From NCBI GenBank assembly GCA_016840035.1, contig JAEOTC010000220.1, forward strand, positions 1-19,810: a stretch of 19,810 nucleotides of DNA, given 5' to 3'. Shown one piece after another: positions 688-19,379 of the stretch. The translations under genes and the position numbers were made by a program. Numbering within the stretch: the first letter of the stretch is position 1; every line of letters begins with the position of its first letter. The DNA is from Candidatus Hodarchaeota archaeon (GTDB taxonomy: Archaea; Asgardarchaeota; Heimdallarchaeia; Hodarchaeales; Hodarchaeaceae). The notes beneath the pieces are model-generated. The model saw nothing but the letters and a program-made list of their open reading frames with translations, ran no database searches and had not been told where the DNA came from.

Positions 688-987
688 ATAACTAAATATT
701 GTTATCATAGTGTATCACCGTTAAGAGTTGATATCTGAATTACTCAGAAGAGAGGGGTGGTATATAGATTGGCTTAAAATTTTCTGTAAAAGCAGAGGAA
801 ATCCATTTTTCAACCTCAAGAATGGGATGAATACGTTATTCGTAATAACGATGGGTGTATCAATTCTACCAAGAGTCTCAAGGGGCACGAATAGTAAAAA
901 TAAAGTAAAATTTGACCTTGATATCTACCCAGAGGGATATATGCACTAAAAATAGGAAATATAGGCTGAAAAATCTACTAAAAACAA

Positions 988-1512: not shown

Positions 1513-1515
1513 TTT

Positions 1516-2781: not shown

Positions 2782-2819
2782 AATCTTACCTCAGAAAAAG
2801 ATAAGAAAACGAGAGAAGT

Positions 2820-3986
2820 TTAAGTATTTAGGTTAAACCGTGAAACAGTCTCTGAGAGGTGATCAGCCAATTCAGTTAAATTTTCAGCTGAAGAGGCCAT
2901 CTGGTTCATCGCTGCTGTTTGTTCTTCTGTAGCAGCTGCAACCTGCTCGCTAGAAGCGCTAAACTCTTCAGACTGTGCGGAAAAACCCTGTAATGTTTCA
3001 TGTAATGTAGAGATATTCCCACCAATGTTTGTAACCATTCTATCTGTGAGATCTGAAATATCTGAAGCATTTGATCTTGTTTCTTCAGCAAGTCTTCTTA
3101 CATTATCAGCAACAACTGCAAAACCCCGCCCAAATTCTCCTGCTCGTGCTGCTTCAATAGCTGCATTCAGAGCTAGGATATTTGTCTGACTTGCAATGTC
3201 CTCAATTATTTGTAAGGTCGTTTCAACGTCCGCTAATGTTTGATCAACTATGTCAGATATTCTCTTTATGTCTTCCATTGTTCTTACCGATAATTCAGAC
3301 TGATTTGCTGCCCCACGACTGATTTGTTGGATGGTAGCTGCAATTTCCTCTGATAACGCATTGACTTCTGAGGATGTTGATGCAAGTTCTTCTGATGAAG
3401 CTGCTATTCGTGGAGCAGAATTTAGGACTGTTTCAATAATTTTAATTAAATAGTTCATTATATCATTTACTAGGAGCGCGATAGGTCCGAAAACGGAATC
3501 ACCAAGAGTTTCTTGAGCATTTAATCGCACAGAGAAGTCATTATTCTCGATTTTATCTTTAAGATCTTGAAATTCATTCAAAAACCGTTCCGTTAAGGCA
3601 AAGATGGCATTTACTGTACCTATCATGACTAAACAGATTATGACAATGGGTGTAATAGATTCAACACTCAGGATAAATCTTTCTGCAGACATTGCAGTAA
3701 CAATCATTGCAACTGAAGCGACACCCTGGACTATAATAATGATATGAAAAGATAATTTCAATCGATAATCATTTTTTCCAAGTTTTATGTATGCACTCCC
3801 CAATGTAATAGCAGAAACGGTTATTAGGATTGCAAAAAATGCCAACCAGTCAACAAAATCTATTGCTAAGTATTTTCCTGAACTTGCAGCCATAACTAAG
3901 ATGAGAAAGTAATAGGGAAGAATCAAGATCTCCAGATAATGAAACCATTTCTTATTTTTGATGAAATTCACTGTTCTTTCATACAT
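2820..3986 (-). CDS. Methyl-accepting chemotaxis protein: ~4 TM helices, degenerate HAMP, short signalling domain
   Basis: [42 protein letters not shown] hairpin; SEE/QQ/SEQ/TEEQ methylation-type pairs; four hydrophobic segments. ATG at 3986 is preferred over the ORF-track TTG at 4001 because GGTGA precedes it. Confidence 0.95.
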
Positions 3987-4050
3987 TCTTAGAGTCACCA
4001 AATATTGATATTAGTTTAATGTCACTGTTTCTAAATAAAGATAGGGAAAT

Positions 4051-4085: not shown

Positions 4086-5243
4086 TTAAAGTTGAAATTT
4101 GGTTATGGCTACATTCAAATCTTCGCTTAATCGACTAAGTTCTTGGGCAGCACTTGTCATTTGATGCATGGAAGCTGTCTGTTCTTCGGTTGCAGCAGCA
4201 ACTTGCTCACTAGATGCACTGAATTCTTCGGATTGTGCAGCGAAACTTTGTAAGGTTTCCTGTAAGGTGACTACACTCCCACCAATGTTTTTAACGATGT
4301 CATCAGTTAATTCACTGATTCCTGACGCATTTTCCTTTGTTTCTTCTGCTAATCGACGGACATTGTCCGAGACAACTGCAAAACCCCTTCCATATTCCCC
4401 GGCCCGTGCAGCCTCAATTGCTGCATTTAAAGCTAAGATATTAGTTTGGCTGGCTATGTCTTCAATGACTTGCATTGATTCCTCGATATTTTGCAATGTT
4501 TGATCCACTGCTTTTGACATTGCTTGTACATTCTCTATTCCATGACTGGCTAAATCTGACTGACTTGAGGCACCACGACTGATTTGTTGAATTGTTGCTG
4601 CAATTTCTTCTGATAGGGCATTAACTTCTGTGGCAGTGGTTGCGAGTTCCTCTGAAGAGGAAGATAGATTTTCTGATGCTTTCTGTGATTCAGATATAAT
4701 TCTTGAAATATTTTCAGCCATATTCGTAAGTGCTTCCTCAACCATGCCGAATTCAGTTCCATAAGCAACTAACCCTTCATTTTTCACTGTTAAACTTCCT
4801 TGATCTATCTGATTTAGTCTTTTCTGCAAAGAGGTGAGAGGAGTCTGAACTGATCTAATTGTATAAATTACTAAGAAAACGGCGAATGAACCAATAATCG
4901 AGTAGATAATGAGAGTTATTGCTAACGTTTCTCCAGCCATCCTTGTTATTGCAGATGATAATCCGATTGCTGTTGCACTTAACGAGAAGCATAATGAAAT
5001 TCTAAAGTAGATACTCTGCTTGAAGATTAGACGTAGTCCGATTGAGAATACCACACCAATTCCGATGTTCATAATTAAACTTGTCTCCGTTGGTGTCGTT
5101 GATTCCATAATTTCGGCTGGTAAAACATTTGTTAGAATGATAGCAAAAATACCTAAGGTTACAGATACAACAAAGAATGTTGACAGGGTTTTTACGTAAT
5201 TTGGGTCGTTGAATACATTTATTTTTTCTTTTGTTTCGAGCAT
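4086..5243 (-). CDS. Methyl-accepting chemotaxis protein: ~4 TM helices, HAMP, short signalling domain
   Basis: HAMP ([18 protein letters not shown]...[12 protein letters not shown]); hairpin [39 protein letters not shown]; methylation helices; AGGGTGG RBS before the ATG. Confidence 0.96.
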
Positions 5244-5409: not shown

Positions 5410-7599
5410 TCATTCGGTTCTTGAGGTGAATGAACTTAATCCACGAAGAGTTAACTCTAATACTTTAGTCCGCCCTTTTTGATTCTCTCGAATATAACCA
5501 ATCGTCGTGAGCTGTTTGATTCGTTTTCTAGTAGTTGGCCTACTGATACCAAGTTGATTCGCAACCTGTGTATATGAAGGTTGAACTCCTTGACTATTAT
5601 TTGTATAAATAAATCTGATAATATCGAGTAAGTGTAATGGAATTTCAGCCAAAATTCTTGTTTCAACCATCTCAGTCTCTTTCTCTAATAGTGCTAGCTG
5701 GTGCGATGTTACCGTCTGTTCATCAAGCGAGAGTATAACGACCAGATTTAGGAATATGGCTATCTCTCTAGCCTTGTATATAAATTTGAGTGTTTCTTCA
5801 AATCCAAATTTCGCAATTAGAAAGTCTACTCGTTCTATCAAAGTAACACTTTTGGGAGGTAATGCTTTCATTCTAATTTCAATTTTATGAAATAACGAAT
5901 CATAATTATCACCCAACCCTGTTTCAGCTAACCAGATATATTCGTAAGATGCATCAAAAATTTCCCTATACTCATCTTCTGGGGTTCTAGACATAACTAA
6001 ACCTGAATATCCAATTCTTAGCAAATCTGCGAATACTTCACGTGAGAGAATCGGATCTGCCTCTTTAACCAGGTAAACCACCTGATCTTCAATTTTAAAT
6101 TTTAAAAGTTCTTGTTTCATCTTGTTTTCTAATGTCTTCGATTTAGTGACATCTCGCCAGATACTCCCAACCATATATCCAGATTGACTTTTAATAGGAA
6201 AAACATTGATTTGTACGTACTTCTGAGTGCCATCTCTTTGCATGATCTCGGTATCAATTGGCCTGGTAACCCACTCAGCACCCCCCACCATCAAGATATT
6301 CTTAAGACCATTAATGATGAGATTAAGAGACTCAGAATTTCGAAGATATTCAGGCATAAGACCATCATAAATCTCCCAGAAACTTGTACCAAAAGCTTGC
6401 TCATTTGATATACCAGTTAATTTTTCAATTGCTGCGTTCCATTCAACTATGCTCCCTTCTTCATCAATTAAGATTATTCCATCCCGAGAATAATCGATAA
6501 TACTTCGTGCTTTCTTTTCACTTTCTCGAATAGCAGATTCTACTTCTTTGAATTTAGTAACATCTGTGACAGAAACAAAAATTTTAGACAAAGAGTCCTC
6601 AAATCCAGGGACAACGAATATCTTAATGATTGTTTGAATTTTTTTCCCTGTGATTGTATACATCTCTCTTTCTCGTTCAATTACAGTTTCACCTTTAAGG
6701 AGATCAATAAAATCCTCACGAAAAGTAGCTAACTGGTCACCAAAAATTGAAATCTTATTCTGAAGAAGTTCCTCCTTACTCTTTGCCTCAAATAGTTCCA
6801 AAGTAGCAGTATTGACATTTGTTACTTTTGTACTCTCTGCAATTAGGTAGGGATTTTCTTCCAGATACTTACGAATATCTCTAATCCCTTCTTCTCTCAA
6901 CTTCATTACAAGCTTTTTCCCTTCGGAAAGATCGATTTCTCTCATAGATACAGGTGAATCTTCGAAGAGTCTTCTAAATCGGATTTCACTATCGATTAAG
7001 GCTTTTTCCGCATCTTTGATTATTGATATGTCAGTTATCGAAATTAATACCTTTGCTAACGTTTCTTCAAATCCCGGCACAACTAATGCCGTAAGAAGTA
7101 CATCTTTCTTTCTTCCCTTTAGGCTATATGCAACTGTCTCCTCTTCAAATCGTTTATTCCCTGATAAAAGCGCAAATAATAAGTTAGCAAAGCCAGAATG
7201 TTGGTCACTTCTAACCTGGGTGAACTTAGGTTGTTGGAAATCTTCTATCGTATCTGCTTCATATAAATCCAAAGCGGAACGATTTATGTTTACGAATTTA
7301 GCTTTACTCGTTAATTTATCTAACTCACCTGGATTACTTTCAATAAAATCATAAATATTGTAAATACTTGTCTTTTCCAGATGGTTACCGTATGTTTTTA
7401 CTTCAGAGAAGTCAACTTCGAGAAGAGCTGTCGGTGAATCTTGAAATAATCTTCTGAATTTCGCTTCACTAGTAACCAACTCTTCTTCGATCTTTTTCTT
7501 CTCTTTAATTTCCACTAATATTTCTTTTATTGTTTCCTTCATATCTTTTGGAATATCCTCTCTTTCCAAGAGATTTTCAAGATTCTTCATTTGGAACAT
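5410..7599 (-). CDS. One-component regulator: PAS-PAS-PAS + DUF835 (inactivated KaiC-like) + C-terminal winged HTH
   Basis: Three PAS entries (SEAKFRRLFQDSP, SEIRFRRLFEDSP, SEKKARSIIDYSRDGIILIDEEGSIVEWN) with DIS/DVT PAC ends. DUF835-type segment (VYLVKE...GYSGLVMSRT...YIWL...IERVDFLI..FGFEETLKF...LLEKE). wHTH (PSYTQVANQLGISRPTTRKRIKQLTTIGYI...GRTKVLELT). Confidence 0.85.
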   Translation of the reverse strand: MFQMKNLENLLEREDIPKDMKETIKEILVEIKEKKKIEEELVTSEAKFRRLFQDSPTALLEVDFSEVKTYGNHLEKTSIYNIYDFIESNPGELDKLTSKAKFVNINRSALDLYEADTIEDFQQPKFTQVRSDQHSGFANLLFALLSGNKRFEEETVAYSLKGRKKDVLLTALVVPGFEETLAKVLISITDISIIKDAEKALIDSEIRFRRLFEDSPVSMREIDLSEGKKLVMKLREEGIRDIRKYLEENPYLIAESTKVTNVNTATLELFEAKSKEELLQNKISIFGDQLATFREDFIDLLKGETVIEREREMYTITGKKIQTIIKIFVVPGFEDSLSKIFVSVTDVTKFKEVESAIRESEKKARSIIDYSRDGIILIDEEGSIVEWNAAIEKLTGISNEQAFGTSFWEIYDGLMPEYLRNSESLNLIINGLKNILMVGGAEWVTRPIDTEIMQRDGTQKYVQINVFPIKSQSGYMVGSIWRDVTKSKTLENKMKQELLKFKIEDQVVYLVKEADPILSREVFADLLRIGYSGLVMSRTPEDEYREIFDASYEYIWLAETGLGDNYDSLFHKIEIRMKALPPKSVTLIERVDFLIAKFGFEETLKFIYKAREIAIFLNLVVILSLDEQTVTSHQLALLEKETEMVETRILAEIPLHLLDIIRFIYTNNSQGVQPSYTQVANQLGISRPTTRKRIKQLTTIGYIRENQKGRTKVLELTLRGLSSFTSRTE

Positions 7600-7618
7600 A
7601 TTATAGTATTAGTTCATA

Positions 7619-7626
7619 GTTTAAAA
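7619..7626 (-). promoter_or_regulatory. Candidate TATA box for a leaderless or near-leaderless transcript of the PAS regulator
   Basis: Minus strand TTTTAAAC 20-27 bp upstream of ATG 7599; no RBS is visible before the ATG. Confidence 0.35.
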
Positions 7627-7671
7627 CCATTACAAATGAAGCTTCGGTATTAAGAAGAAAAGAAGAGATTT

Positions 7672-8217
7672 CTACTGGTATTTTATTCCCAATTCAATGG
7701 ATTTTGATTCTTTTTCCAGTAAACGCAAATATCGAGATTTTATGGCACTCGAATTCACTGAAATTAGTATAATTATTGATTTCAAATGTGCTATCTCACG
7801 TAGATTGTATACAAAATTAAGAGTATCTTCAAAACCATTTCTTGCGATTAGATTTTCCAATCTATCAACAAAAATGAAGTTACTTCCATCCAATCCGTTC
7901 ATTATTGACCCGAATGTCTTGTAGAACATTGAAGGTACAATATCCTGTGATATTCTATGTTCTTCTTGGAGGTCTACAAGTTCAGCAAATCTCTCTTTGA
8001 TATCTTCCTTTGTCTCTTTCGATATTATAATACCTTTATATCCCAAATATATCAATTCATTAAGAAGCAGGTAAGAAATAGTTGAACCTAGATCTGTCAC
8101 AAGATATAAATCTCCTGCTTTCAGGTTAAAATTCTTATATTGACAGATTTCCGGTTTTTTTTCAAGTTCAATTGGAGCTGAAGACTTAATTGATGTAAAA
8201 ATATAGGAGCTTTCCAT
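7672..8217 (-). CDS. Stand-alone DUF835 (inactivated KaiC/RecA-like) domain protein
   Basis: FNLKAGDLYLV...GYKGIIISK...FIFVDRLENLIARNGFEDTLNFVYNLREIA...LLEKE aligns by eye with the DUF835 segment of the neighbouring regulator. No Walker A. AGGTG RBS upstream. Confidence 0.8.
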   Translation of the reverse strand: MESSYIFTSIKSSAPIELEKKPEICQYKNFNLKAGDLYLVTDLGSTISYLLLNELIYLGYKGIIISKETKEDIKERFAELVDLQEEHRISQDIVPSMFYKTFGSIMNGLDGSNFIFVDRLENLIARNGFEDTLNFVYNLREIAHLKSIIILISVNSSAIKSRYLRLLEKESKSIELGIKYQ

Positions 8218-8374: not shown

Positions 8375-9430
8375 TTATTCATGGGCTAGACTAGTTAGCA
8401 AGTATTCGATAAAGGGACTATCTCGATTGAAAGCTTCAAAGTTTTCTTGAATAATGAATGATATTGGTTTCTTTTGTAGAATTCGTCCTTTAGGTATTCT
8501 TGGAATGCGATTTACAATAGCTAAAATCTTAGTATCTCCATTTGTTTTTAATCCATGTATCTGACGAATATACTGGGGTGTAAGATTTGACTTCATAACC
8601 AAAATATCATAGGAAACACTCTCAGTCCAGGTATCAATGCTATTTCGAAGACCATCAATCGTGGTACAAAGATAGGAATAAATCTCTCTTGATTGAAGAA
8701 TTTTACGCAAATTTTCGAATTGTTGTTCATTGTCACTGAGAACGAGGAGTTTCTTTTGTTCTTGTTTTAAAGCACTCGCTTTGAGGTCTTTCAACAATCG
8801 ATAAAGGACATCATGGAGCTTTCCCTCTAATATTTCATCTTGGATAACTGATGAAATGACCTCTTCTAAGCTAGAAATTTTTCTAATCGAACGTTTTAAA
8901 ACATCTGGAGTTGCATCGGAGAATAATTGCATACCTCTCCAGTACAATTCCTCAATTGGGATATTACCCTCCATCGCATTCATAAACAAATTTTGGAACT
9001 GCTCTCTTTGGATATCCTCAAGGAGGTCCTTATCAGTGAGAAAGCTGTTAATCTCACGTGTAAAGGAATTTGTTTCTAAAGACCAATCAAATAATAGATC
9101 TTCCATAGTACTAAGGTATTTATCGGAGAATTTTGTCCCAATAAACTGTAACATCAGTTTAACTGAAAAAGGTTGGAGTTTTTCTGTTCCACCAGCTAAT
9201 ATTGCAGCAACAATGATTTCTCCAATCGATTCAAAATACAATTCGTCATTTCCGAGCTTTAAATACTCAACCGATTGATTTTTTGAACTAAGAGTTTCTG
9301 CAAAGTTCGCTAGACCAGCTACAAGACCTGAAAATAATAAATCATCAATTTTATAATCCGAGAAGTCCGCATGATAGTGATAATGACACAATCCAATTTT
9401 GGAAATTATCCAGAGATTCTTGATTATCAT
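8375..9430 (-). CDS. Longin-like N-terminal domain + helical linker + C-terminal pseudo-receiver (CheY-like) domain
   Basis: N-terminus IKNLWIISKIGLCHY...DDLLFSGLVAGLANFAETL...VEYLKLGN has a longin pattern. C-terminus KKLLVLSDN...YDILVMK...KILAIVN...ISFIIQE has receiver beta/alpha periodicity. Start reassigned to ATG 9430 (AAGGT RBS, 34 bp after cheR stop) rather than 9547, which overlaps cheR by 83 bp. Confidence 0.7.
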   Translation of the reverse strand: MIIKNLWIISKIGLCHYHYHADFSDYKIDDLLFSGLVAGLANFAETLSSKNQSVEYLKLGNDELYFESIGEIIVAAILAGGTEKLQPFSVKLMLQFIGTKFSDKYLSTMEDLLFDWSLETNSFTREINSFLTDKDLLEDIQREQFQNLFMNAMEGNIPIEELYWRGMQLFSDATPDVLKRSIRKISSLEEVISSVIQDEILEGKLHDVLYRLLKDLKASALKQEQKKLLVLSDNEQQFENLRKILQSREIYSYLCTTIDGLRNSIDTWTESVSYDILVMKSNLTPQYIRQIHGLKTNGDTKILAIVNRIPRIPKGRILQKKPISFIIQENFEAFNRDSPFIEYLLTSLAHE

Positions 9431-9464
9431 TATTGCTGACCTTTCTTTGGATTTTTGTAGTAAA

Positions 9465-10661
9465 TTATATTGGTTTTTTCTTATATATACGATTACGGGT
9501 ATCGATAATCTCAAATTTGTGTTTAATTGATTGAGGTAATACCTCACATCTACCTAACACTAAGTATCCGTCAGGTTTCAACGCGGAGTAGAACTGCTTA
9601 AAGAATATTTCACTTTGTGGGCGTGAAAAGTAAATCAATACGTTTCGACATAGAATAATATCAAAATCACGTCCAGGTGGTGAAGTTCTAAGATCATGTT
9701 GCTTAAATGTCACCATATTCCTTATTCGTGAAGATAGTTGATAAAGATCAGAATCACTGATAGGAGAAAAATACTTGGTTATTTTCGAGTTGTCTAGTTC
9801 CTCCAAAGATTTATCAGAATATATTCCTTTAATTGCTTGTTGAAGTAATCCCTGATTGATATCAGTAGCAAGAATATATGGTTTTAAAAAAGTGGTTCTT
9901 GATCGTAATTCATCTAAGAGAATTGCAATGCTATAGGGTTCGGGACCGATTGCACACCCCGCGCTCCAGACACGGAAAGTATTCTTTCTATCAATGATCC
10001 GGGGAAAAATCTCTTTTCCTAAAACCATAAATAACTCGTGATCCCGAAAGAAACGAGTTACATTGATTGAAAAATTATCCATTAAGAGTTTAAATTCAGT
10101 AGAAGAATTTAATAATAAATTATAATAGCCTTTGTAGGTATTTTTATTTACACGTTTCATTCTAGCATGTAATCTTCGAAGAAAATGATTTTGTTTATAT
10201 GCTTGATAATTAATATCTCGACTCGATAATAAATCATATATTAAGGTCAAATTCTTCTCATCCGTCGGCGTGTTGAGACTAGATTCAAATTCTGGGGGAA
10301 GAACAACGAGAGGTTTCCTTTTTTTCTTTTTTGCAGTCGAAGGAGCTGTTGAAAAGTCTTTCAATGTCTTTTTCCGTCTTATTAGAGGAATAAATGTTTT
10401 ATCCTCTTCATGAATTGCCCTTCCTTTTTCTAGCCATTGCAGGACAGATTCGAAGAGTTTAGGATCGGTTTTAAGAGAGCTCAATAGTTCAGAATAACTC
10501 TTTAATCCCATCCTCCTAGTTTGAGATCTCAGTCGAAGAAGTATACGCTTTTCATCTTTTGAGGTAAATTCAAATTTTTTCTCTCGGAGGAATTCAATTA
10601 TTTCTCTTTTACCTCTATCTGATTCCAAATTAATTGAAAACTTGTCGTACGTAATTTGCAT
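9465..10661 (-). CDS. cheR: Chemotaxis protein-glutamate methyltransferase CheR with an extra N-terminal CheR_N-like domain
   Basis: INVTRFFRD, VWSAGCAIGPEPYSIA, ATDIN, HDL, FDIILCRNVLIYF and GYLVLG motifs. Confidence 0.95.
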   Translation of the reverse strand: MQITYDKFSINLESDRGKREIIEFLREKKFEFTSKDEKRILLRLRSQTRRMGLKSYSELLSSLKTDPKLFESVLQWLEKGRAIHEEDKTFIPLIRRKKTLKDFSTAPSTAKKKKRKPLVVLPPEFESSLNTPTDEKNLTLIYDLLSSRDINYQAYKQNHFLRRLHARMKRVNKNTYKGYYNLLLNSSTEFKLLMDNFSINVTRFFRDHELFMVLGKEIFPRIIDRKNTFRVWSAGCAIGPEPYSIAILLDELRSRTTFLKPYILATDINQGLLQQAIKGIYSDKSLEELDNSKITKYFSPISDSDLYQLSSRIRNMVTFKQHDLRTSPPGRDFDIILCRNVLIYFSRPQSEIFFKQFYSALKPDGYLVLGRCEVLPQSIKHKFEIIDTRNRIYKKKPI

Positions 10662-10693
10662 TGCTTCCTGACTTCATGGTTTAATTTACTCTG

Positions 10694-11272
10694 TTAGAGA
10701 ATAAGTGAAGTTCCACCTGTTGGTGTGACTATTAATTCATAATCTTTCACGATGAATTTCACATTCATACCCCGATCGCCCCCTGTAAACTCTTTCACTA
10801 GGGGGATACTATGCTTTTTCAAGTTAATTTTTGTGGCACGAACATTTTCTTTCCCAATGTCTAAGGTATCTGAAGATTTCCCAAACATCTTCGCTCCACC
10901 AACCATTTTTGCTTCATATGTCTTTGGTTGAAAACCAAGATTTCTTAATTTGTCTATCATACAGGGAATTGCTTTGTCCGAATATTTTGCAGGTAAAATT
11001 TTCTTTATTGGTTTTTTCTTCTGTTTTCTCTTATGGAATTCGGGTAACATAATATGTGCCATAATCGCACATCTACTTTCACCAAATAGATGCTTTGGAT
11101 ATATAACGAGGCCGACACACGATCCTAATGCAGGTATCTTTAGGTGATCTGTAGCATAACCAATGACAATCTGACTGATATCAACATAGACTGAATTAAA
11201 TCTCAAATCGTTCTTTGATTCGTCAGGAAGAGATAATTTCTTTGTCATTGAAACACATCTAGAGCTCAGCAT
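10694..11272 (-). CDS. cheD: Chemoreceptor glutamine deamidase CheD
   Basis: LGSCVG (catalytic Cys), AHIMLP (His), KYSD, AKMVGGAKMF, IGKENV, TGGDRG. Alternative start at ATG 11248. Confidence 0.95.
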   Translation of the reverse strand: MLSSRCVSMTKKLSLPDESKNDLRFNSVYVDISQIVIGYATDHLKIPALGSCVGLVIYPKHLFGESRCAIMAHIMLPEFHKRKQKKKPIKKILPAKYSDKAIPCMIDKLRNLGFQPKTYEAKMVGGAKMFGKSSDTLDIGKENVRATKINLKKHSIPLVKEFTGGDRGMNVKFIVKDYELIVTPTGGTSLIL

Positions 11273-11284
11273 CTACTGTACGAT

Positions 11285-11938
11285 CTAATACATCTCTTCG
11301 GAAAACAAGGATTTCATGAATGCGTCAAATGTATCACTTTCAGGAACAATCGCTAAATCTACGGCAATATTACGTTCTGAAGTGAAAATATCACACTCTA
11401 CTACAAGAACTGTTGAAGGATCTTGATTTAATTCCTTTAATTCATATTTCTCAAGTGATTCAATCGTTCCAATCCTAAATTCAGGGGGAGAAGGAAAGGA
11501 ATTAGCTTTCAAAAAGTAATTTAAGGCTTCCAAATATTTCAACAGCAAGATGGATCCAGTCTCTTTAATTAATGATAAATATAAAGGTGATAATTCAGAA
11601 AGTTTTGATTGAACAAGATCTGGAGCAGAAGTAGTCATTAGATTAATGATTTTAGCTACACTAAGTTTGTCAAAAAAGACAAGAAGTGTATACTTCAAAT
11701 CGCTCACCGTTTTTAATGAAATGATTGCCAGTTCTTGATCGGAGGGCATTTTTACTAAAGTGTGGATGGAATCTACACTATCAAGAGCAACATTAGGAAT
11801 GCTCATATAGGTTGAACGGTTTAAAAATTGAGTTAAAGCTGTAGCAGCTTGACCAGCGCCAATATTTCCTACCTCCTGTAACGCATCAAGGTGGAAGTCT
11901 GACAATTTCTCAAAGTTATATTTTTCTTCATTATGCAT
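11285..11938 (-). CDS. cheC: CheY-P phosphatase CheC
   Basis: DALQEVGNIGAGQAATAL (D-x3-E-x2-N site), second site SLIKETGSI...PSPP. Start overlaps the cheA stop by 8 bp (ATGCATAA). Confidence 0.92.
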   Translation of the reverse strand: MHNEEKYNFEKLSDFHLDALQEVGNIGAGQAATALTQFLNRSTYMSIPNVALDSVDSIHTLVKMPSDQELAIISLKTVSDLKYTLLVFFDKLSVAKIINLMTTSAPDLVQSKLSELSPLYLSLIKETGSILLLKYLEALNYFLKANSFPSPPEFRIGTIESLEKYELKELNQDPSTVLVVECDIFTSERNIAVDLAIVPESDTFDAFMKSLFSEEMY

Positions 11939-13826
11939 TTATCGAAGTCTCCAAAAAATTCATGGGATCAAGTATTAACACAACTTGTCCTCCCTCTAAA
12001 ACAGTAGCCCCAGAAAAAGTTCCTAATTGACTAAGAAAATCATTTATGGGTTTGATTACAACGTCTCTTTCTCCAAGTAATTCATTCACAAGAAAACCTA
12101 AGCTTCGAGCTCCTTTACGCCATAGTACAATATTATTTTTCTCCACTACCCGATTACCCTTAATAGATGATTGCAGAAATGATGAACTTGTTTCTAAGGA
12201 CCTATAGTTCAATAAACTCGTTAAATCAATAACTGGAACAGGTGCATTGTCAACAATTATAGTTTTACTATCAGTTTCTGAATCTTGAAGAATCTTTTCT
12301 GCTGGTACTGTTAAAATTTGTTCAATATTCGCCATAGGAATTGCTAATCTCTGTTCTTGAATACTAAGCATCAATACCTTGGTAATTGCTACTGAAATTG
12401 GAATTATTAAACGAATTGAGGTAAATATTCCCGGTTCAGAATCAATTTCGATATTTCCTCCAATTTCATCGATAATTTGTTTAACAATATTTAGTCCAAC
12501 CCCTCTTCCTGAAATTTCTGTGGTTTTCAAGGCAGTTGAGATACTATGAGAGAAAATGTAGGAATGTATTTCTTCCCTAGATAATTGAGCTTTTGAAGAG
12601 GAAAGTCCAAGATTCTTAATTTTTTCCTGGATTTTATCATAATTCAATCCACGTCCATCATCCTTAATCTCGATTACAATATCTGATCGCTCATGGCTAA
12701 TATTAAGTCTGATGGTTCCTCTTTCATCTTTATTCTTTTTCATTCGATCAGAAGGTGATTCAATTCCGTGATCGACTGCATTTCTTAGCAGGTGTGTTAG
12801 AGGATTAGTTAATTGTTCAATAACTGAACGATCTACACCAATGTGTTTACCAGAAATAATCAAATCAACTTTCTTACCGTTATCCTGTGCTAAGTCACGT
12901 ACCATTCTTGGAAAGCGCGTAAGAATGGTTTCTAAGGGTACGAGTCGCATTTTTATAACTAAATCTTGGATATCTGAAATAGTCCGTTCATAACTAGCTA
13001 AATTTTCCTTAAAAGATCTAGAATAGGCTTGTTGTTCACCTATCTCTCTAATGAATTGTCCACTTATTACTAATTCACCTAATAGCTGAATTATTCTATC
13101 TAAATCCTTTAACCCAACTCTCACATTCAAAGGTTCTTGGCTATCAGCCATAATGCTTGGTTTTTCAACAGTACTAACTGAATCCAATAGTCGAGACATA
13201 TTCGCAGACATTACATCTTGAGTTTCCTCGATGATCTGTGTTATTGCCTCCTCATCTTCTTGAGTAGTTAACTCCACAAATAATTCCTTGAACGTAGTAC
13301 CCGCTTGAATTTCTTCCATCGGAGGAACAGTACGTTCAATTGTCGCTTTCTTTTGTAGTTTCTTTAGGAGAACTAAACTTCGTGCACTTATAACCTTACA
13401 ATCAGGACTGAAAAGTATCTTAATTCCAAACTTATTTCCAAGATTAACAATGAAATCATCGAAAGAAGCTAATTGTTGAGTCAATTGATCAAACCTAAGT
13501 AATTCTGGGGTTTTTCCACCACGTAATGAATTTGCAAGGTTTTGTATCTCATCACAGTACTGGAATAGGAGTGCAACAACTTTTTCGACTCCGCCACTAT
13601 CAATAGTATTCAATAAGTTCTCCATACTATGGGTAAGAGAGCTAAGTTGTGGATATCCTGATAAAGAAAAGAGTCCTTTTAAGCTGTGTAATGTGTGAAG
13701 AATGTTATCAGATTTCGCATTAGGATTCTTTTCTAGTTCCAATAAACCTGAATTTAACTCCTCAACACGCTCAGTAAGTTCTTGGAGCATAACTTCTTGG
13801 AATTCTTCTGTTTCAAAATCTTCCAT
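11931..13826 (-). CDS. cheA: Chemotaxis histidine kinase CheA (Hpt-P2-dimerisation-HATPase-CheW)
   Basis: HSLKG phospho-His; P2-like ILFSPDCKVISARSLVLL; VRV..LDRIIQLLGELVI; RFPRMVRD; HLLRNAVDHGIE; DDGRG; ISGRGVGL; C-terminal P5 ending SGATVLEGGQVVLILD. Confidence 0.97.
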   Translation of the reverse strand: MEDFETEEFQEVMLQELTERVEELNSGLLELEKNPNAKSDNILHTLHSLKGLFSLSGYPQLSSLTHSMENLLNTIDSGGVEKVVALLFQYCDEIQNLANSLRGGKTPELLRFDQLTQQLASFDDFIVNLGNKFGIKILFSPDCKVISARSLVLLKKLQKKATIERTVPPMEEIQAGTTFKELFVELTTQEDEEAITQIIEETQDVMSANMSRLLDSVSTVEKPSIMADSQEPLNVRVGLKDLDRIIQLLGELVISGQFIREIGEQQAYSRSFKENLASYERTISDIQDLVIKMRLVPLETILTRFPRMVRDLAQDNGKKVDLIISGKHIGVDRSVIEQLTNPLTHLLRNAVDHGIESPSDRMKKNKDERGTIRLNISHERSDIVIEIKDDGRGLNYDKIQEKIKNLGLSSSKAQLSREEIHSYIFSHSISTALKTTEISGRGVGLNIVKQIIDEIGGNIEIDSEPGIFTSIRLIIPISVAITKVLMLSIQEQRLAIPMANIEQILTVPAEKILQDSETDSKTIIVDNAPVPVIDLTSLLNYRSLETSSSFLQSSIKGNRVVEKNNIVLWRKGARSLGFLVNELLGERDVVIKPINDFLSQLGTFSGATVLEGGQVVLILDPMNFLETSINA

Positions 13827-13880
13827 TCATCTGAACCTTCAATTTAATGTTCTACTCAATTCTAAGAATAATTTTGAAGA

Positions 13881-14240
13881 TTAAAGCAACACATTCTCAA
13901 TTGCTTGAACTAATTGATCTACCTTGAATGGTTTAATAACGAAATCCTTAGCTCCAATTTTTAGGGCTTGTCGCACAAGTGGTTCATGCCCAAGAGCTGT
14001 GACTACGACAAAATTGGCTTTTGGATCAATAGCCATTATTTCTTTCATTGCTAAAAGACCATTCATTTTTGGCATAACAATATCCATTGTCACGACATCT
14101 GGTTTAAAGTTCTTGTACTGTTCGATTGCTTCAGCGCCTGTTTCAGCTTCCGCGACAACAGTATGTCCGTGTTTCTTCAAAATTTTACTTATCATTAGAC
14201 GTAGGTATTTTGAATCGTCTACAATTAGGACAGTAGCCAT
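13881..14240 (-). CDS. cheY: Chemotaxis response regulator CheY
   Basis: VLIVDD, PDVVTMDIVMPKMNG (phospho-Asp), VTALG and FVIKPF; all catalytic residues present. GAGG RBS. Confidence 0.97.
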   Translation of the reverse strand: MATVLIVDDSKYLRLMISKILKKHGHTVVAEAETGAEAIEQYKNFKPDVVTMDIVMPKMNGLLAMKEIMAIDPKANFVVVTALGHEPLVRQALKIGAKDFVIKPFKVDQLVQAIENVLL

Positions 14241-14258
14241 GTTTCTAATCCTCTTTTT

Positions 14259-16505
14259 TTATTTGGTTTTATTAGTAATTTTATCATTATTCGGAGATTT
14301 CAATATTTCTCCAGTTAAAGTTTTCTCTATAAACTCATTCTCAATTATAAAAACTGAAGATGAGTCCTTTTCATCAATGAATTGTTGCTGACAACATTTA
14401 ATTCCCTCTGAAAATATATCGATTCCCTCTAATGAATGAAAATCGCTTTTAAACGCCGTTATTACCGCTTCCAAGCTTTCTACGGGTATTTGGTAAGTTT
14501 CGTCCTCAATTTTAACTGTAAAGAAATCCACCTCTTCGTCATAGTTTGTTATTCCAGGTGTTTTCATCATCAAAGATTGAAGATCAATTACACAAATTTC
14601 CTCTTCACCTAAAGTGGCCTTCTTAATATGAGGAGGAAGATCAGCTCTTGACTTTTTAATCTTAACAGAAGAACTAAGAACGCTTTGAATAAATGATACA
14701 TCAATCGCCAGTTTATCTCCTCCCCATCGAAATACAAGGAAATCGCATCTATCCTCCTCACCATGAGACAGGAGATATAGTTCTCGTTCCTTGTGTTGAT
14801 CTTGAAGCTGTGCTAATGATTTTTCATCATCAGGATTTAGCTGAGATATCATTTCCTCAACATTATTAATACCAATATCTGATTTAAGAATGGAAAAAGT
14901 TTCTTCAAGTAAACGTGCTGGTTTCACTATAATACCCAAAGCTCCATTGAAGGAAAAAAATCCAGAAATCATTTGAGAGAGCATGGATGTGTAAAAACTA
15001 GTCTCAGGCTGAAAGATATCCAATTGATCTATTGAAACTCTTCCTAGTATTTTTTCAACGACAAAGGCTGCTTCTAAATCAGTTTTTTGATCATGTAGTA
15101 ATACTCCAGCCACCTTACTCGTTTCTGGAAATCCTAAACATGCACCCTGGACTAAATAATTAAAATCTACAAGAGGACTTAATTCACGATGAGTGGTAAC
15201 ACCCAGTATTGCCTCATGCGAATATTCACTTCTGAAGAATAAAACTTGATCCAGGATTTGCGTAATAAATTCAGAATCTATAAAAAATAAGTTTTCCTTG
15301 TTTTGAACCAATAGGCCTTCCTGAGCCCTGCTTTTAACCGACTCCGCAGTTACAGTCATAGGATTGTAAAAGGAAACTACTGGGTAATTTTCATCTTCAA
15401 GACTACCAGTATTGAAGTACATTCTGAAAATATAATTAATGTTTAAAACAAAGACAATATTCCCTGATTGCTCTAACATTACTCCCTGAAATATATAATT
15501 GTCGTTGATGCCTGTATTCAATACTAGTGTCTGCCTAATTTCACTTTTCTCGACTTCTACAATTCTGGGAATTTCATCCATCATGAAAGCAAGCTTTTCA
15601 CCAGCAAATTCCACAATTAAAGATTTTAATCCCGTGAATTTCTGATTGTCATTAATTTTCGTAGTTTGATCGGTGAAAAGTAGCGCGGTTAGATCTATTG
15701 CGTTTATTACTTCACCCTGATAATTAATAGCCCCAACAACAATGTTAGATGTATTTGGAATTTCAGTCAATTGTGAAATTGAATATATTCCCGACAAATT
15801 TTCATTTGGAATTAGGATTGATAAGTTTTGGACATTAACTATCGTCCCAGTAAATTTTTCCTCTTTAGCTGGACGGATAAATCTATCAGGTCTCCATCTT
15901 GAAACCTGAGTTGAATCTTGATTATGCTGTAATTCGATGTTAAATTCATCAAGTGGAACTTCCCCTCCGTTTTGATAGTTCTGAAAAGTAATTTCAATTT
16001 GTGAGTTTTTAAAATGCTTGTTTGAATCAATCATGATTTGATTAAAGATCATTTCAATGTTAAGCATTACGATTATGTTTTCTTCCCACATAAATGCTGA
16101 GTTAAAGAAAGATTCAGATTTCACTTTACTATTGATGAAGATTTCTTTTGTTACTGATTGGCCAGGCTTACTAATTATCCCAATAACATTATCAACGAGT
16201 AAGAATATTGACTGACCTCCATATTCTGCCACAAGAAAATTCTGTGTTTTCCTAGGATTGTCATTGAGTGAATCTAATCTCTCTCCGTAAAAATAGATGT
16301 TTAAGTCTATTGCAGGGAGAACTTCTCCTTGATAAGCTGTTGAACCTAATAAATAAGGAGGAGTATTAGCGGCTGGATTAATGAAGGCGTTTTGTATAAT
16401 TTGAGAAATATAGGTATTTTCAATCGCAAAGAATTTCTGATTAAGAGAAAAAATAACTAAACTTTCTTCATTATTTCTTCTCTTTATAGTACTTGCGATT
16501 GGCAT
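14259..16505 (-). CDS. cheW: Multi-domain CheW-like protein with four tandem CheW domains
   Basis: Four CheW-type repeats: LVIFSLNQKFFAI..PPYLLG..YQGEVLPAIDL; SILIP..IPNTSNIVVGAINYQGEVINAIDL; LFFIDSEFITQI..AILGVTTHRELSPLVDF; FLVFRWGGDKLAIDVSFIQSV..ICVIDL. ATG 16505 (GAGGTAGG RBS) is preferred to TTG 16544. Confidence 0.8.
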   Translation of the reverse strand: MPIASTIKRRNNEESLVIFSLNQKFFAIENTYISQIIQNAFINPAANTPPYLLGSTAYQGEVLPAIDLNIYFYGERLDSLNDNPRKTQNFLVAEYGGQSIFLLVDNVIGIISKPGQSVTKEIFINSKVKSESFFNSAFMWEENIIVMLNIEMIFNQIMIDSNKHFKNSQIEITFQNYQNGGEVPLDEFNIELQHNQDSTQVSRWRPDRFIRPAKEEKFTGTIVNVQNLSILIPNENLSGIYSISQLTEIPNTSNIVVGAINYQGEVINAIDLTALLFTDQTTKINDNQKFTGLKSLIVEFAGEKLAFMMDEIPRIVEVEKSEIRQTLVLNTGINDNYIFQGVMLEQSGNIVFVLNINYIFRMYFNTGSLEDENYPVVSFYNPMTVTAESVKSRAQEGLLVQNKENLFFIDSEFITQILDQVLFFRSEYSHEAILGVTTHRELSPLVDFNYLVQGACLGFPETSKVAGVLLHDQKTDLEAAFVVEKILGRVSIDQLDIFQPETSFYTSMLSQMISGFFSFNGALGIIVKPARLLEETFSILKSDIGINNVEEMISQLNPDDEKSLAQLQDQHKERELYLLSHGEEDRCDFLVFRWGGDKLAIDVSFIQSVLSSSVKIKKSRADLPPHIKKATLGEEEICVIDLQSLMMKTPGITNYDEEVDFFTVKIEDETYQIPVESLEAVITAFKSDFHSLEGIDIFSEGIKCCQQQFIDEKDSSSVFIIENEFIEKTLTGEILKSPNNDKITNKTK

Positions 16506-16574
16506 GGTTCCTACCTCAATTTCATTAAATGGTTCTCTATTCAAATCCTGATATGTTTAATTTTGCGGACATAT

Positions 16575-17186
16575 TTATTCCGAAAGATCCTCATCCTCGA
16601 TTATACTTTCCATAAAGTTATCTGAACTTTCATCTGGTAATGTGTACTGACTTAAGTCGAAATCCATGTCATCTGTATCTTCTTGTTCCCTCTTTGGAGT
16701 TTTAACAGATGTAAAGTAATTTCCTAACGCTTCTTCTGGATTTACAATCATGATTTCAGTTTGATCTTCAAGGACTCCAATTTGAGTTATGAGTGATTCA
16801 TCAACTAGAGTCTTTCCCTTGAAGTGTGATTCATTAGCACTAGATGTTTCCTTGATTTTTGAGATTTGATGAACCTGATCAACTAAAATTCCAACATCTT
16901 GTCCTTTTATTGAGATCACTAGAACGTTATTACTTTGATTAACCAATTTTCGCTCAATATCGAAGCCATTTCCCCATAAGAGATATAATAAATCAAACAC
17001 ACTTAGAATATAACCCCTGAGTTCTGTAATACCCGAAAGAACATTGGAAGTTTTTGGAAGTTTTAAAATTTTATCAGTCTGGAAAACTTCTTTTATATAA
17101 TCAACTTTAATCCCATAAACTTCCTTTACAATTTGAAATACAAGATATTTTTCTGGTGTATGAAGTGAAGAGTTCATGAATTTCAA
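16575..17186 (-). CDS. cheW: Coupling protein CheW with an acidic C-terminal tail
   Basis: YLVFQI..YGIKVDYIKEV, LPKTSNVLSGITELRGYILSVFDL, VGILVDQV. TTG start overlaps the upstream stop (TTGA); ATG 17177 is the alternative. Confidence 0.92.
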   Translation of the reverse strand: MKFMNSSLHTPEKYLVFQIVKEVYGIKVDYIKEVFQTDKILKLPKTSNVLSGITELRGYILSVFDLLYLLWGNGFDIERKLVNQSNNVLVISIKGQDVGILVDQVHQISKIKETSSANESHFKGKTLVDESLITQIGVLEDQTEIMIVNPEEALGNYFTSVKTPKREQEDTDDMDFDLSQYTLPDESSDNFMESIIEDEDLSE

Positions 17187-17911
17187 TCCTTTTTATTTGC
17201 GTTTAATATTTGCCGAAAATTTTTCATTACTTTATTGAATCTCGACGAAATCGGCTTATTGATCTCTTTTGTAGTTCCAGAGTATTCGGAACTAAGATAA
17301 GTGGAATCGGACTCCTCCATTGAGTCCAAACTTCTTTCAAGTTCTTGATCACCAATATAAGTTGTCGTAGTTTCCATCACAATATTATCAACTATACTGC
17401 CCAGTTGTGGAAATATTGAGGATTTTTTTTCCTCAAGGGCTTGATCTGTAAAATCGAAGCTTATCTCTACTACTAATCCAGATTCATAGGAGTGAAGGCT
17501 TACTAACATGAAGATTGTCTCAAATATTCTAGAAGCAAGATCATCAATCGATTCGATGAAGACTCGATTTGTTAAATAAGAGATTGGAAAATTTGTGACC
17601 GTGAGAAGGCAGACTAGATCACTTTGAGTGCGAACAAATATCCGTGATCCTTCCTGAACACCGATATCGTTTAATTCCATATTATTTCCGATCATCTCCC
17701 CAAATTGTACGATAGCAGCCATTAATCCAGCGATTAGTGCCGGATCCTCTCCTGGAGAGTTAGAGGTGCGTTTATAAACTCTAGAAAAAACAGGAAGTCC
17801 ACTTCGTTTATTTAATAACAAAATTTCGCGGACATTGAGGTTTATTTCCGCAAATTCGTTTTGTTTTTTGTCTCCATTGTTTAATTCTGGTTGAATAAAG
17901 ATTGGCAACAC
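17183..17911 (-). CDS. Longin-like domain protein with an acidic linker and a C-terminal basic amphipathic helix
   Basis: VREILLLNKRSGLPVFSRVY...EDPALIAGLMAAIVQFGEMI...LNDIGV...IFV....LVCLL matches the beta-beta-alpha-beta-beta-beta-alpha longin pattern (xxIxxxxSGxPxF / DxxLxxGLxxAIxxF). GTG/TTG start; exact start uncertain. Confidence 0.72.
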   Translation of the reverse strand: MLPIFIQPELNNGDKKQNEFAEINLNVREILLLNKRSGLPVFSRVYKRTSNSPGEDPALIAGLMAAIVQFGEMIGNNMELNDIGVQEGSRIFVRTQSDLVCLLTVTNFPISYLTNRVFIESIDDLASRIFETIFMLVSLHSYESGLVVEISFDFTDQALEEKKSSIFPQLGSIVDNIVMETTTTYIGDQELERSLDSMEESDSTYLSSEYSGTTKEINKPISSRFNKVMKNFRQILNANKKD

Positions 17912-18269
17912 CTAAATCTCACAATAATGTCAATGAATACCTTTAAATTCACTTGGGGGCTTTTTCGTACTATCTCGAAATATAGAAATAGAATAGTCAA
18001 ACGTACGTTCTTTTTGATCAAAATTCTTAGTTTGCATTTTGTTAGTAATTCTCCTCAAATTATAACCTATCGAAATAGAATGAGCTTTCCTAATAAATAG
18101 AAATTCGGTAATGAATATGGAAAAATTCGTAAAAACAGAGCTCTCATTTTATAGATGAAATAATTTTATCCGAAAAATCCTGAAATAATGTCAGAGGAAG
18201 CATTATCTGAAAATACCTGAAAAGTAATCCTAATACAAATGATAATTGGTTTATATTCAATTTTCTCTC

Positions 18270-19379
18270 TCAATTTTCGTATGTATAATCAATTAGGAGC
18301 TGAGGAATTTTGTGTAAAGGTGCCACATGATCAACAAGTTGCCCCTCAATAACTGCTTTTGGCATTCCATATATGACACAAGTCGATTCATGTTCTGCAA
18401 TTATCTTTCCATTGACTGCTTTTAACTTCTTGGCTCCATTATACCCATCTCTCCCCATTCCTGTAAGAATTATCCCAATGGTGTTATCTCCATATACATT
18501 AGCGGCAGATTTAAAAGTAACATCTGCTGATGGCATAAGAAAATTAACTTTCTGACCCTTGTAGATGTTAAATCTTTTTCCTCCTTCAATTGCACAGTGT
18601 AATCCACCAGGAGCGATATACACTTTATTAGGTCGAATAAGTTCGTTGTTTTCAGGAATTTTGATTGATAAGTATGAATATAACTTTTTTAGACGTTCTA
18701 CCCATTGTCCCACCATCTCTTCAGGCATATGTTGAATAATCACGATAGGTGGAAACTTGTACTTTGTTTTAGATAAAATCTCATTAATTTTGGTTAAAAT
18801 TAAAGAAATTGCTCTAGGTCCTCCTGTTGATGAAGCTATAATATAGATCCGATCTTGAAAGGTTTTTAGTCCTTTTTTCGGTTTTTTAACGACTTTAGGT
18901 TCCTCTTCCATAAAGGAATCGAAATCAAAGCTTTTTATTGCTCGCGTGAGATTTATCTGAGAGAGACTCTGAATTTTGGTGACTAATTCTCGTTGAAACC
19001 TCTTATCATCAATAGAATCATCGTGAGAAGGTTTTTTTACAAATTCTACTACACCTGATTCGAAAGCTGCCATTCCCAAGTTCTCAAGTGATTTATCAAC
19101 GTCTTTTTGACTTAAAGAAGAAACAATCACAACAGGTAATGGGAATCTATCCATAATATGTCCAATAGTCTCGTATCCATCCATTTCTGGCATCATAATA
19201 TCCATGGTAACAATATCTGATTTATATTTTTGAAGACTCATCTTCTGTAATGCGATATTTCCATTAGGAGCGGTACCAATGACTTTAATACGTTTTCCGC
19301 CTTTAGTTAGAATTTCTTTAATTTTGTGGCGATATACGGCTGAATCATCCACAATAAACACTCTAACTTCATCAGACAT
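18270..19379 (-). CDS. cheB: Chemotaxis response-regulator methylesterase CheB
   Basis: Receiver (VFIVDDS, DIVTMDIMMPEMDG, VSS, KKP) plus esterase triad motifs ASSTGGP, IQHMP, ILTGMGRDG and VIYGMP. Confidence 0.97.
   Translation of the reverse strand: MSDEVRVFIVDDSAVYRHKIKEILTKGGKRIKVIGTAPNGNIALQKMSLQKYKSDIVTMDIMMPEMDGYETIGHIMDRFPLPVVIVSSLSQKDVDKSLENLGMAAFESGVVEFVKKPSHDDSIDDKRFQRELVTKIQSLSQINLTRAIKSFDFDSFMEEEPKVVKKPKKGLKTFQDRIYIIASSTGGPRAISLILTKINEILSKTKYKFPPIVIIQHMPEEMVGQWVERLKKLYSYLSIKIPENNELIRPNKVYIAPGGLHCAIEGGKRFNIYKGQKVNFLMPSADVTFKSAANVYGDNTIGIILTGMGRDGYNGAKKLKAVNGKIIAEHESTCVIYGMPKAVIEGQLVDHVAPLHKIPQLLIDYTYEN

Follow-up and report, generated by a model that had tools for sequence, protein, structure and literature searches.

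Two predicted longin-fold proteins linked to a chemotaxis operon in one genus of Asgard archaea

Chemotaxis (che) genes of Asgard archaea have been reported from Lokiarchaeia and Heimdallarchaeia, where they were found in 27 of 97 metagenome-assembled genomes (MAGs), and receptor arrays were observed in 'Ca. L. ossiferum' (PMC9834061). The archaeal adaptor between phosphorylated CheY (CheY-P) and the archaellum switch ArlCDE is described as CheF, and genes of type IV filaments and CheF are reported to be scattered across the Asgard group (PMC13705601). Cultured Hodarchaeales have surface filaments, and the main text of the corresponding preprint contains no mention of chemotaxis (10.1101/2025.02.26.640444). 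In cyanobacteria, PatA-type proteins of the PATAN-REC arrangement, such as PixG and PixE, are reported to be the output of che-like Tax systems; PixE is non-phosphorylatable, and the N-terminal PATAN domain is the output part, which binds the type IV pilus motor (PMC11181946). The Frz system of Myxococcus xanthus has been described as a che-type pathway that, together with the roadblock proteins MglB and MglC and the receiver protein RomR around the GTPase MglA, serves non-flagellar motility. The subject of the present work is the che operon of a Hodarchaeales genome bin, carried by a contig of 19,810 nucleotides (JAEOTC010000220.1 of assembly GCA_016840035.1), the whole of which is called the window below. 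Two genes of this operon, named here A and B, encode proteins with predicted longin folds. In eukaryotes, GTPases and membrane traffic have longin domains among their hallmark regulators. No description of a che operon including longin-fold genes was found in the open-access literature searched, supplements excluded.

The explanation put forward here, to which we give a probability of about 45%, is that A and B serve the che pathway as lineage-specific accessory proteins, paired near the membrane on its output side and filling the role of CheF. It bears on the targets of che systems in lineages that have neither CheF nor an archaellum and on the roles of longins in Asgard archaea, A and B being candidate new parts of a chemotaxis pathway that here lacks the usual motor link. 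The evidence base consists of predicted structures and of gene context in related, incomplete genome bins; all folds given for A and B are those of predicted models, not solved structures.

The window is the entire contig C202 (19.8 kb) of bin G000, which comprises 4.30 Mb in 293 contigs and is 87% complete with 4% contamination. The first-pass annotation, made from the letters of the window alone, had described a che block flanked by two co-directional genes as one tight cluster, and the gene order was confirmed, on the minus strand, as cheB, A, cheW, multi-CheW, cheY, cheA, cheC, cheD, cheR and B. The gaps from A to B are, in order, -4, 30, 18, 54, -8, 12, 32 and 34 bp; they thus range from -8 to 54 bp, below the limit of 70 bp given at first, and the last of them, between cheR and B, is the 34 bp stated there. 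The overlap of A with cheW at TTGA was confirmed too, as the TGA stop codon of A overlaps a TTG usable as the cheW start; an ATG lies 9 nt further on. The genes and domains of the cluster, scanned with Pfam at E<=0.01, are the following.

18270..19379, minus strand: cheB, receiver and methylesterase (Pfam CheB_methylest E 1.2e-49, Response_reg E 6.5e-17), 358 bp upstream of A
17183..17911, minus strand: gene A, 242 aa, GTG start; no Pfam match, longin-fold model
17360..17836, minus strand: A residues 26-184, predicted longin domain by structural matches, with a low-confidence insertion at residues 140-166
17270..17320, minus strand: A residues 198-214, conserved acidic Ser/Thr/Tyr-rich motif, from an alignment of 32 sequences
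17189..17248, minus strand: A residues 222-241, predicted C-terminal basic amphipathic helix, from the model and the hydrophobic moment
16575..17186, minus strand: cheW, single domain (Pfam CheW E 2.9e-17)
14259..16544, minus strand: multi-CheW, 761 aa, three Pfam CheW domains and a C-terminal part without a family
13881..14240, minus strand: cheY, single receiver (Pfam Response_reg E 2.4e-30)
11931..13826, minus strand: cheA, with Pfam Hpt, P2, dimerisation, HATPase and CheW domains
11285..11938, minus strand: cheC (Pfam CheC E 5.8e-10)
10694..11272, minus strand: cheD (Pfam CheD E 6.1e-23)
9465..10661, minus strand: cheR, 398 aa (Pfam CheR E 3.4e-52, residues 200-390; CheR_N, residues 148-185)
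8375..9430, minus strand: gene B, 351 aa, ATG start; no credible Pfam match, predicted longin, helical linker and degenerate receiver
9017..9430, minus strand: B residues 1-138, predicted longin domain by structural matches
8375..8761, minus strand: B residues 224-351, predicted pseudo-receiver, a receiver fold without the phosphorylation residues

The distribution of both genes was surveyed by profile searches over 400 Asgard genomes, 22 of which belong to the genus of the window. Full-length A was found at 12 places in 11 genomes, all of this genus, and full-length B in 13 of its 22 genomes and in none elsewhere; outside the genus, the longin-like domain alone matches, usually within other architectures. 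Public homologues of A and B carry the labels Hodarchaeales, Heimdallarchaeota or Promethearchaeota, and the 46 homologues of A, from Hodarchaeales/Heimdall-type MAGs, are every one annotated 'hypothetical'. CheA is present in 12 genomes of the genus. A occurs in 11 of these 12 and in none of the ten CheA-negative genomes (Fisher p 3.4e-5), and B in ten of the 12 and in three of the ten (Fisher p 0.027), both p values overstating the association because related genomes are not independent. In G075, the sole CheA-positive genome without A, the contig ends before the expected place of the gene.

The first-pass annotation had left the linkage of the two genes with che genes to a comparison of genomes, and for A this linkage recurs: ten of its 12 loci lie inside che operons. 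The order cheB-A-cheW was found at seven loci, one being the second che operon of the window's own bin (contig C12), and the remaining three read MCP-A-cheW (MCP, methyl-accepting chemotaxis receptor), A-cheB-cheW and A-cheW. A stands directly before cheW at nine of the 12 loci, and its position is kept at sequence identities down to about 44%. Conserved operon position and co-occurrence with CheA, two features expected of an accessory Che protein, are both found for A, and in part for B (three of 13 loci in che operons and two of 13 next to A).

B is placed at the end of the che operon in three genomes (G000, G061 and G062), beside A in two and on its own amid housekeeping genes in eight. In the two genomes with the pair (G068 and G072), A is followed directly by B in the same direction, with gaps of 74 and 57 bp and away from any che gene; in G072 the che operon lies elsewhere and reads cheB, 375 bp, cheW, without A, and the che contig of G068 is cut. 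In a maximum likelihood tree of the 13 B proteins, the three copies embedded in che operons group together (support 100/99), as do, in a separate clade, the two found beside A (support 100/100), so that B joined A or che genes in two independent events. No other evidence for a joint function of A and B is as strong as these two events. The tie of both flanking genes to the che system, as claimed at first, holds for A and gains from the adjacency of A and B in two genomes; for B it holds incompletely, given the eight solitary loci of 13 and the three CheA-negative genomes of ten.

The alternative that survives best, unlikely as it seems to us, is that A is a membrane-anchored scaffold on the input side, binding CheW or multi-CheW and building or positioning the receptor array, with B as a chance neighbour in some genomes. 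The translational coupling of A to cheW in the window and its place directly before cheW at nine of 12 loci support such a scaffold, and the same can be said of the amphipathic basic tail of A, of B alone at eight of 13 loci and of longin-like genes directly upstream of cheW elsewhere in Asgard archaea (in G137 with E 2.1e-8, and weakly in three genomes with E 0.002-0.009 or worse). However, two genomes have A beside B and not at cheW, and their che operons seem to lack A (this is seen in G072, the che contig of G068 being cut), which argues for an A-B partnership; the joining of B to A or che genes in two separate clades also speaks against a chance neighbour.

The second che operon of the bin (C12 1-8393, of which L011 covers 1-3597) is cut at the contig end and has the order cheB-A'-cheW-multiCheW-cheY-cheA-cheC-cheD. 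Its proteins are 36-82% identical to those of the window, and A' is 73-75% identical to A. It could be a true second system or belong to a second strain in the bin, which has 4% contamination.

AlphaFold2 models of A and B were built from alignments of 32 and 35 homologues, respectively, and compared with representative structures by VIA-align, which gives Z scores, and by Foldseek. The longin-type motifs reported at first were borne out by the predicted structures, as both proteins show the longin order of elements and have longins as best matches (Z 13.8 for A and 12.3 for B). Neither matches a Pfam family, including Longin PF13774 and Fuz_longin_1 PF19036, at E<=0.01; support from Foldseek for the longin fold of the two lies at E 8e-5 to 1e-3. 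The mean predicted local distance difference test score (pLDDT) of the A model is 55, rising to 65-83 in the core (residues 26-139). Its strands (26-34, 40-45, 81-84, 90-96 and 99-106) and helices (57-72, 116-139 and 170-183) give a five-stranded sheet in the order beta-beta-alpha-beta-beta-beta-alpha(-alpha), that is, a longin fold in the predicted model. By VIA-align, the closest structures are synbindin (2zmv_A, Z 13.8, 120 residues aligned, root-mean-square deviation (rmsd) 2.8) and sedlin (2j3w_A, Z 13.1), followed by VAMP7 and Sec22 (Z 11.7-11.8) and by AP subunits. Ranks 1-31, judged by entry titles, are longin-type or closely allied folds, the first roadblock entry being MglC with Z 7.9, and Foldseek is led by zeta-COP, AP sigma subunits, TRAPP and Sec22b.

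The assignment of A and B to the roadblock/LC7 fold was considered and rejected. That fold begins with a helix, in the order alpha-beta-beta-alpha-beta-beta-beta, and has none at its C-terminus; in the models of A and B, no helix precedes the first strand and long helices come after the sheet.

Beyond its longin domain, A contains two conserved elements. Residues 186-232 have pLDDT below 50 and form a predicted disordered stretch, within which the motif of residues 198-214 is located; T204, Y205, L206 and G212 are invariant and M198, E199, E200 and S203 nearly so in the 32 sequences. This motif may be a docking peptide. In the tail, the best 14-residue window has a hydrophobic moment of 0.5-0.9 in 31 of the 32 aligned sequences and a net charge of +1 to +5 in 29 of them, and the modelled helix 222-241 is a possible membrane anchor. 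A profile of A, run against 1.84 billion representative proteins, gave 30 matches at E<=0.001 with lengths of 72-363 aa, which, judged by length alone, are too short for full-length A plus another Che domain. To judge from their sequences, A and B are not close paralogues: their sole shared match, of 21 residues, belongs to the first helix (E 0.061 by BLASTP; by hhalign, E 0.0016 with a probability of 16%).

For B, 45 homologues were found, and the model has a mean pLDDT of 78. Residues 1-138 take the longin fold in the predicted model, with strands 3-10, 15-20, 57-59, 62-69 and 72-79 and helices 30-50 and 87-109. The best VIA-align matches of this part are a TRAPP subunit (3cue_A, Z 12.3, 129 aligned, rmsd 3.4) and Fuzzy (7q3d_C, Z 12.2), with Sec22 (Z 11.5) and BLOC-3 (Z 11.4) further on and the roadblock protein MglB lower (Z 10.1). 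The B profile had no match among sequences of the Protein Data Bank (PDB) at E<=10. Its match to the 138-aa protein L071 (E 4e-11), which in turn matches Pfam Fuz_longin_1 (E 2.4e-8; 34.6 bits, gathering cut-off 26.1), provides the only sequence link, a transitive one, of the N-terminal domain of B to the longin family. Fused forms of B were not found among longer proteins of 616-2000 aa, which is weak evidence.

The C-terminal part of B, on which the first-pass annotation was silent, is predicted to be a degenerate receiver. Residues 224-351 have the (beta-alpha)5 flavodoxin-like fold of receivers in the model (Z 10-11.1, 102-118 aligned, rmsd 2.3-3.3) and match the response-regulator receivers 2qxy_B, 3hdv_A and 3cg4_A, with a conserved Pro/Arg-rich loop in place of the fourth helix; Pfam Response_reg does not match B. 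The positions of the phosphorylation quintet (acidic pair, acceptor Asp, Thr/Ser and Lys) were taken from the strands of the model, with no superposition on CheY, and counted over 35 sequences, and B does not have this quintet. At the acidic pair, position 232 is C or S in 35 of 35 and position 233 is K or R in 23 of 35. At the acceptor site, position 280, D is found in 20 of 35 sequences; the window copy has K, and other close relatives of this copy, including the che-embedded ones, have Q or H. The Thr position 307 is N in 24 and the Lys position 328 is Q in 32 of the 35. As modelled, this degenerate receiver is the most direct structural tie to two-component signalling.

Among known systems, the same predicted fold with the same order of strands and helices is found in eukaryotic TRAPP subunits (synbindin/TRAPPC4 and sedlin/TRAPPC2) and longins of the SNARE type (Sec22b and VAMP7), for which the N-terminal domain of B gives Z 11.2-12.3. 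In contrast to these, A and B have no sequence-family match (4-16% identity in structural alignments) and belong to a chemotaxis operon, A having in addition the acidic motif and the amphipathic tail and B the receiver fold; partners of the TRAPP or SNARE kind were not identified. A solved Asgard longin, which by its entry title is a Lokiarchaeota Roadblock-Longin protein (PDB 8yqg), gives Z 10.3 for B and 9.5 for A and scores below the eukaryotic TRAPP and SNARE longins. Membership of A and B in the tri-longin RabGEF subunits (Rab guanine nucleotide exchange factors Mon1-Ccz1, Fuzzy-Inturned and HPS1-HPS4) was rejected, as each has one longin domain and not three.

Like the PatA-type proteins, B combines an N-terminal domain and a C-terminal receiver in one protein from a che-like operon. 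Unlike them, it is archaeal, its N-terminal domain is a predicted longin fold, and its receiver is devoid of the Mg-binding pair, Thr and Lys in nearly all sequences; Pfam PatA_N (PF14332) did not match B at E<=0.01. A protein-atlas feature search pointed to clusters of PatA_N+REC and Robl_LC7+REC with scores of 0.76-0.79, below the reliability mark of 0.9. The resemblance to Frz and MglA consists in a che-type pathway with small proteins of the longin/roadblock superfamily and a receiver-domain protein, and MglB and MglC are among the weaker structural matches of A and B; the fold, however, is longin and not roadblock, no GTPase gene is adjacent and no sequence homology was detected. With CheF, A and B share the proposed role of an archaeal che-specific output adaptor, and Pfam revealed no homology of either to it. 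The closest precedents in function, the PatA-type proteins and the Frz/MglA module, are bacterial; since B fails the PATAN sequence test and both proteins fail the tri-longin test, the parallels with them are of likeness in function, not of membership.

The usual archaeal output was sought by genome searches. The first-pass annotation had recognised no cheF in the window; Pfam likewise found none there, and the 87%-complete genome contained none either. CheF (PF04283) was not found in any of six genomes of the genus searched (G000 and five others of 94-99% completeness), a search that recovered it in three archaeal model genomes used as a control, and archaellin above the cut-off was not found in any of the six either. 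ArlD/E (Arch_fla_DE) was not found in G000, the one genome searched for it. With CheF, ArlD/E and archaellin not found, the pathway plausibly has another output route.

One type IV pilus-like locus is present in G000, comprising a T2SSE ATPase, two T2SSF halves and pilin-like genes. It occupies C186 1711-9586 (L103), between radA and the gene of the DNA polymerase D large subunit, and holds four pilin-like genes with RRRG-type signal sequences and a gene for a 159-aa protein; no ArlH-like or archaellin gene stands alongside.

The explanation we prefer, an A-B pair on the output side of the che pathway, may be pictured as follows. A, with its predicted longin domain, acidic motif and basic amphipathic tail, its place before cheW and its restriction to genomes with che genes, would be a che-specific membrane-proximal coupler that plugs the Che signal, carried by CheY-P or by the CheA/CheW complex, into the machine of B. 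B, consisting in the model of a longin, a helical linker and a receiver that is not canonically phosphorylatable, would be the partner on the target side; since B is also found in genomes devoid of che genes, its task is probably to regulate a machine that the cell has anyway. Together, the two would do the job of CheF in other archaea. The most concrete candidate target would be the pilus-like locus on C186, with a small GTPase as the alternative. Predictions of an A:B complex scored 0.01 and 0.06, values that weigh neither for nor against binding. The set concerned is small and defined: besides A and B, it comprises six Che proteins, the single pilus-like locus and the 59 GTPases.

The GTPase alternative in its full form, which we regard as less probable still than an input-side scaffold, makes A and B a longin heterodimer that serves as a GEF or GTPase-activating protein (GAP) platform for a small GTPase, so that the Che kinase and CheY would steer a polarity switch in the manner of Frz and MglA. 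The longin domain of B matches subunits of Fuzzy, Mon1-Ccz1 and BLOC-3 with Z 10.5-12.2, a distant relative of B matches Fuz_longin_1, 59 Ras-family matches exist in G000, and Myxococcus is described as joining a che-like system with roadblock and receiver proteins around MglA; yet each protein has a single longin domain where known RabGEF subunits have three, and A is matched best by the single-domain longins of TRAPP and SNARE proteins, not by GEF subunits. The coupling to a small GTPase, suggested at first, obtained no support from gene context: none of the 59 genes is near A or B, the window contig and the second che contig carry none of them, and no Ras match occurred among 68 Pfam-scanned proteins from B-alone loci, A-B pairs and one che-operon end without B. 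The ideas of a GTPase, of membrane remodelling and of protrusions as targets are thus drawn by analogy.

Pairing of this domain family with GTPases does occur elsewhere in G000, a point in favour of the GTPase alternative. Two of the eight other open reading frames (ORFs) that match the A or B profile are on or beside a Ras-family gene: the ORF at C11 6862-7824 has a Ras-family match in the same frame (7306-7785), and that at C36 7977-9074 has one (6591-7082) about 0.9 kb away.

The domain shared by A and B is widespread beyond the genus. The A profile matches 232 of the 400 Asgard genomes, mostly via about 50-100 N-terminal residues, and CheA is found in 82 of the 400. Fifteen che loci of other Asgard families, with 235 ORFs, were inspected. 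In G044 (L094 12686-13261), an A-like gene of 191 aa directly follows cheD (E 4.7e-11), and in G137 (L095 8047-8889), a 280-aa gene with a B-like N-terminus and no receiver directly precedes cheW-cheA (E 2.1e-8). Upstream of cheW, three related Asgard genomes carry a gene for a 271-279-aa protein whose profile matches are weak (A2 profile, E 0.002-0.009, in two genomes; A1, E 0.87, in the third), a hint at longin-like genes in this position, not evidence. The eight further ORFs of G000 that match the A or B profile at E<0.01, among 3,924, serve as background, and against it the matches beyond the genus are suggestive only.

Several points speak against an A-B pair acting as the output of the che pathway. 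Full-length A and B are confined to one genus, the longin-like domain that they share is common in Asgard genomes, and the overall confidence of the A model is low. The two strong matches among 235 ORFs at other che loci are only about four times the expectation, and 34 loci (about 3 kb) of distant domain relatives have no che gene within 1.5 kb. B occurs in three CheA-negative genomes that are 91, 87 and 80% complete, was not seen in the CheA-positive genomes G060 and G070, and at its eight solitary loci is surrounded by GNAT, NAD-synthase, Lhr-helicase or molybdopterin-oxidoreductase genes; the five linked copies of B reflect just the two events described above. In the che-embedded copies of B the acceptor Asp is lost, which rules out their canonical phosphorylation by CheA. 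Finally, the pilus platform gene is present in 21 of the 22 genomes of the genus and cannot discriminate, so that it neither supports nor excludes a link with the pilus-like locus.

A bolder version of our reading, for which we see a small chance, holds that the bacterial-type che kinase pathway has been rewired through a pair of eukaryote-type longins, one member of which has a CheY-like pseudo-receiver, to a small GTPase or a surface-filament machine and not to CheF and the archaellum. If true, some of the closest known archaeal relatives of eukaryotes would have a prokaryotic sensory pathway in control of a polarity or trafficking module of eukaryotic style.

The least probable explanation, that A and B have no functional link and are two of many Asgard longin proteins hitch-hiking with a mobile che operon in one genus, draws on the size of the domain family (the A profile in 232 of 400 genomes), on the patchiness of the operon expected of a transferable module (12 of 22 genomes in the genus, 82 of 400 across the phylum) and on all evidence being genomic context within related genomes. 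Against it stand the pattern of A (11 of 12 against 0 of ten), its position kept down to about 44% identity, the tight or overlapping gaps and A remaining next to B on leaving the operon.

The composition of the other operon proteins agrees in part with the first description. Of the four CheW domains proposed for multi-CheW, three were confirmed by Pfam, at about residues 29-169, 235-374 and 409-548, and the fourth is unproven: residues 581-761 have no Pfam match at E<=0.001, and neither phmmer with the CheW and CheA P5 domains nor a BLASTP self-comparison resolved one. CheR has about 130 extra N-terminal residues outside Pfam CheR_N/CheR, which span only residues 148-390. The spacer between cheB and A holds an ATG ORF of 35 codons (window 17930-18036, minus strand). 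Downstream of B, the window carries the following genes.

7672..8217, minus strand: DUF835 protein (Pfam DUF835 E 8.7e-13), 157 bp downstream of B
5410..7599, minus strand: PAS-DUF835-wHTH regulator (Pfam)
4086-5243 and 2820-4001, minus strand: two methyl-accepting chemotaxis receptor genes (Pfam MCPsignal E 9e-35 and 1.2e-29)

An ORF at window 1-708, also on the minus strand and running off the contig, encodes an N-terminal hydrophobic segment and then a long Asp/Glu-rich stretch, with no Pfam match. A search of sequencing runs listed no RNA run with the locus; four DNA runs of one marine-sediment study contain the stretch.

DUF835 genes recur downstream of the che operon in three genomes of the genus, including G062 and G070, either alone or fused to PAS and wHTH or to MEDS and PAS (L038 46-546 and 2569-3003; L082 2725-4512), and may form a linked regulatory module. 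In another Asgard family, the che clusters (L097 6602-9497 and 12631-13449; also L098, L100, L096 and L099) conserve unannotated genes, namely those of a DUF11-containing protein of roughly 675 aa and a protein of roughly 277 aa after cheA; in three genomes of that family, a 271-279-aa protein encoded before cheW has a weakly longin-like C-terminal half.

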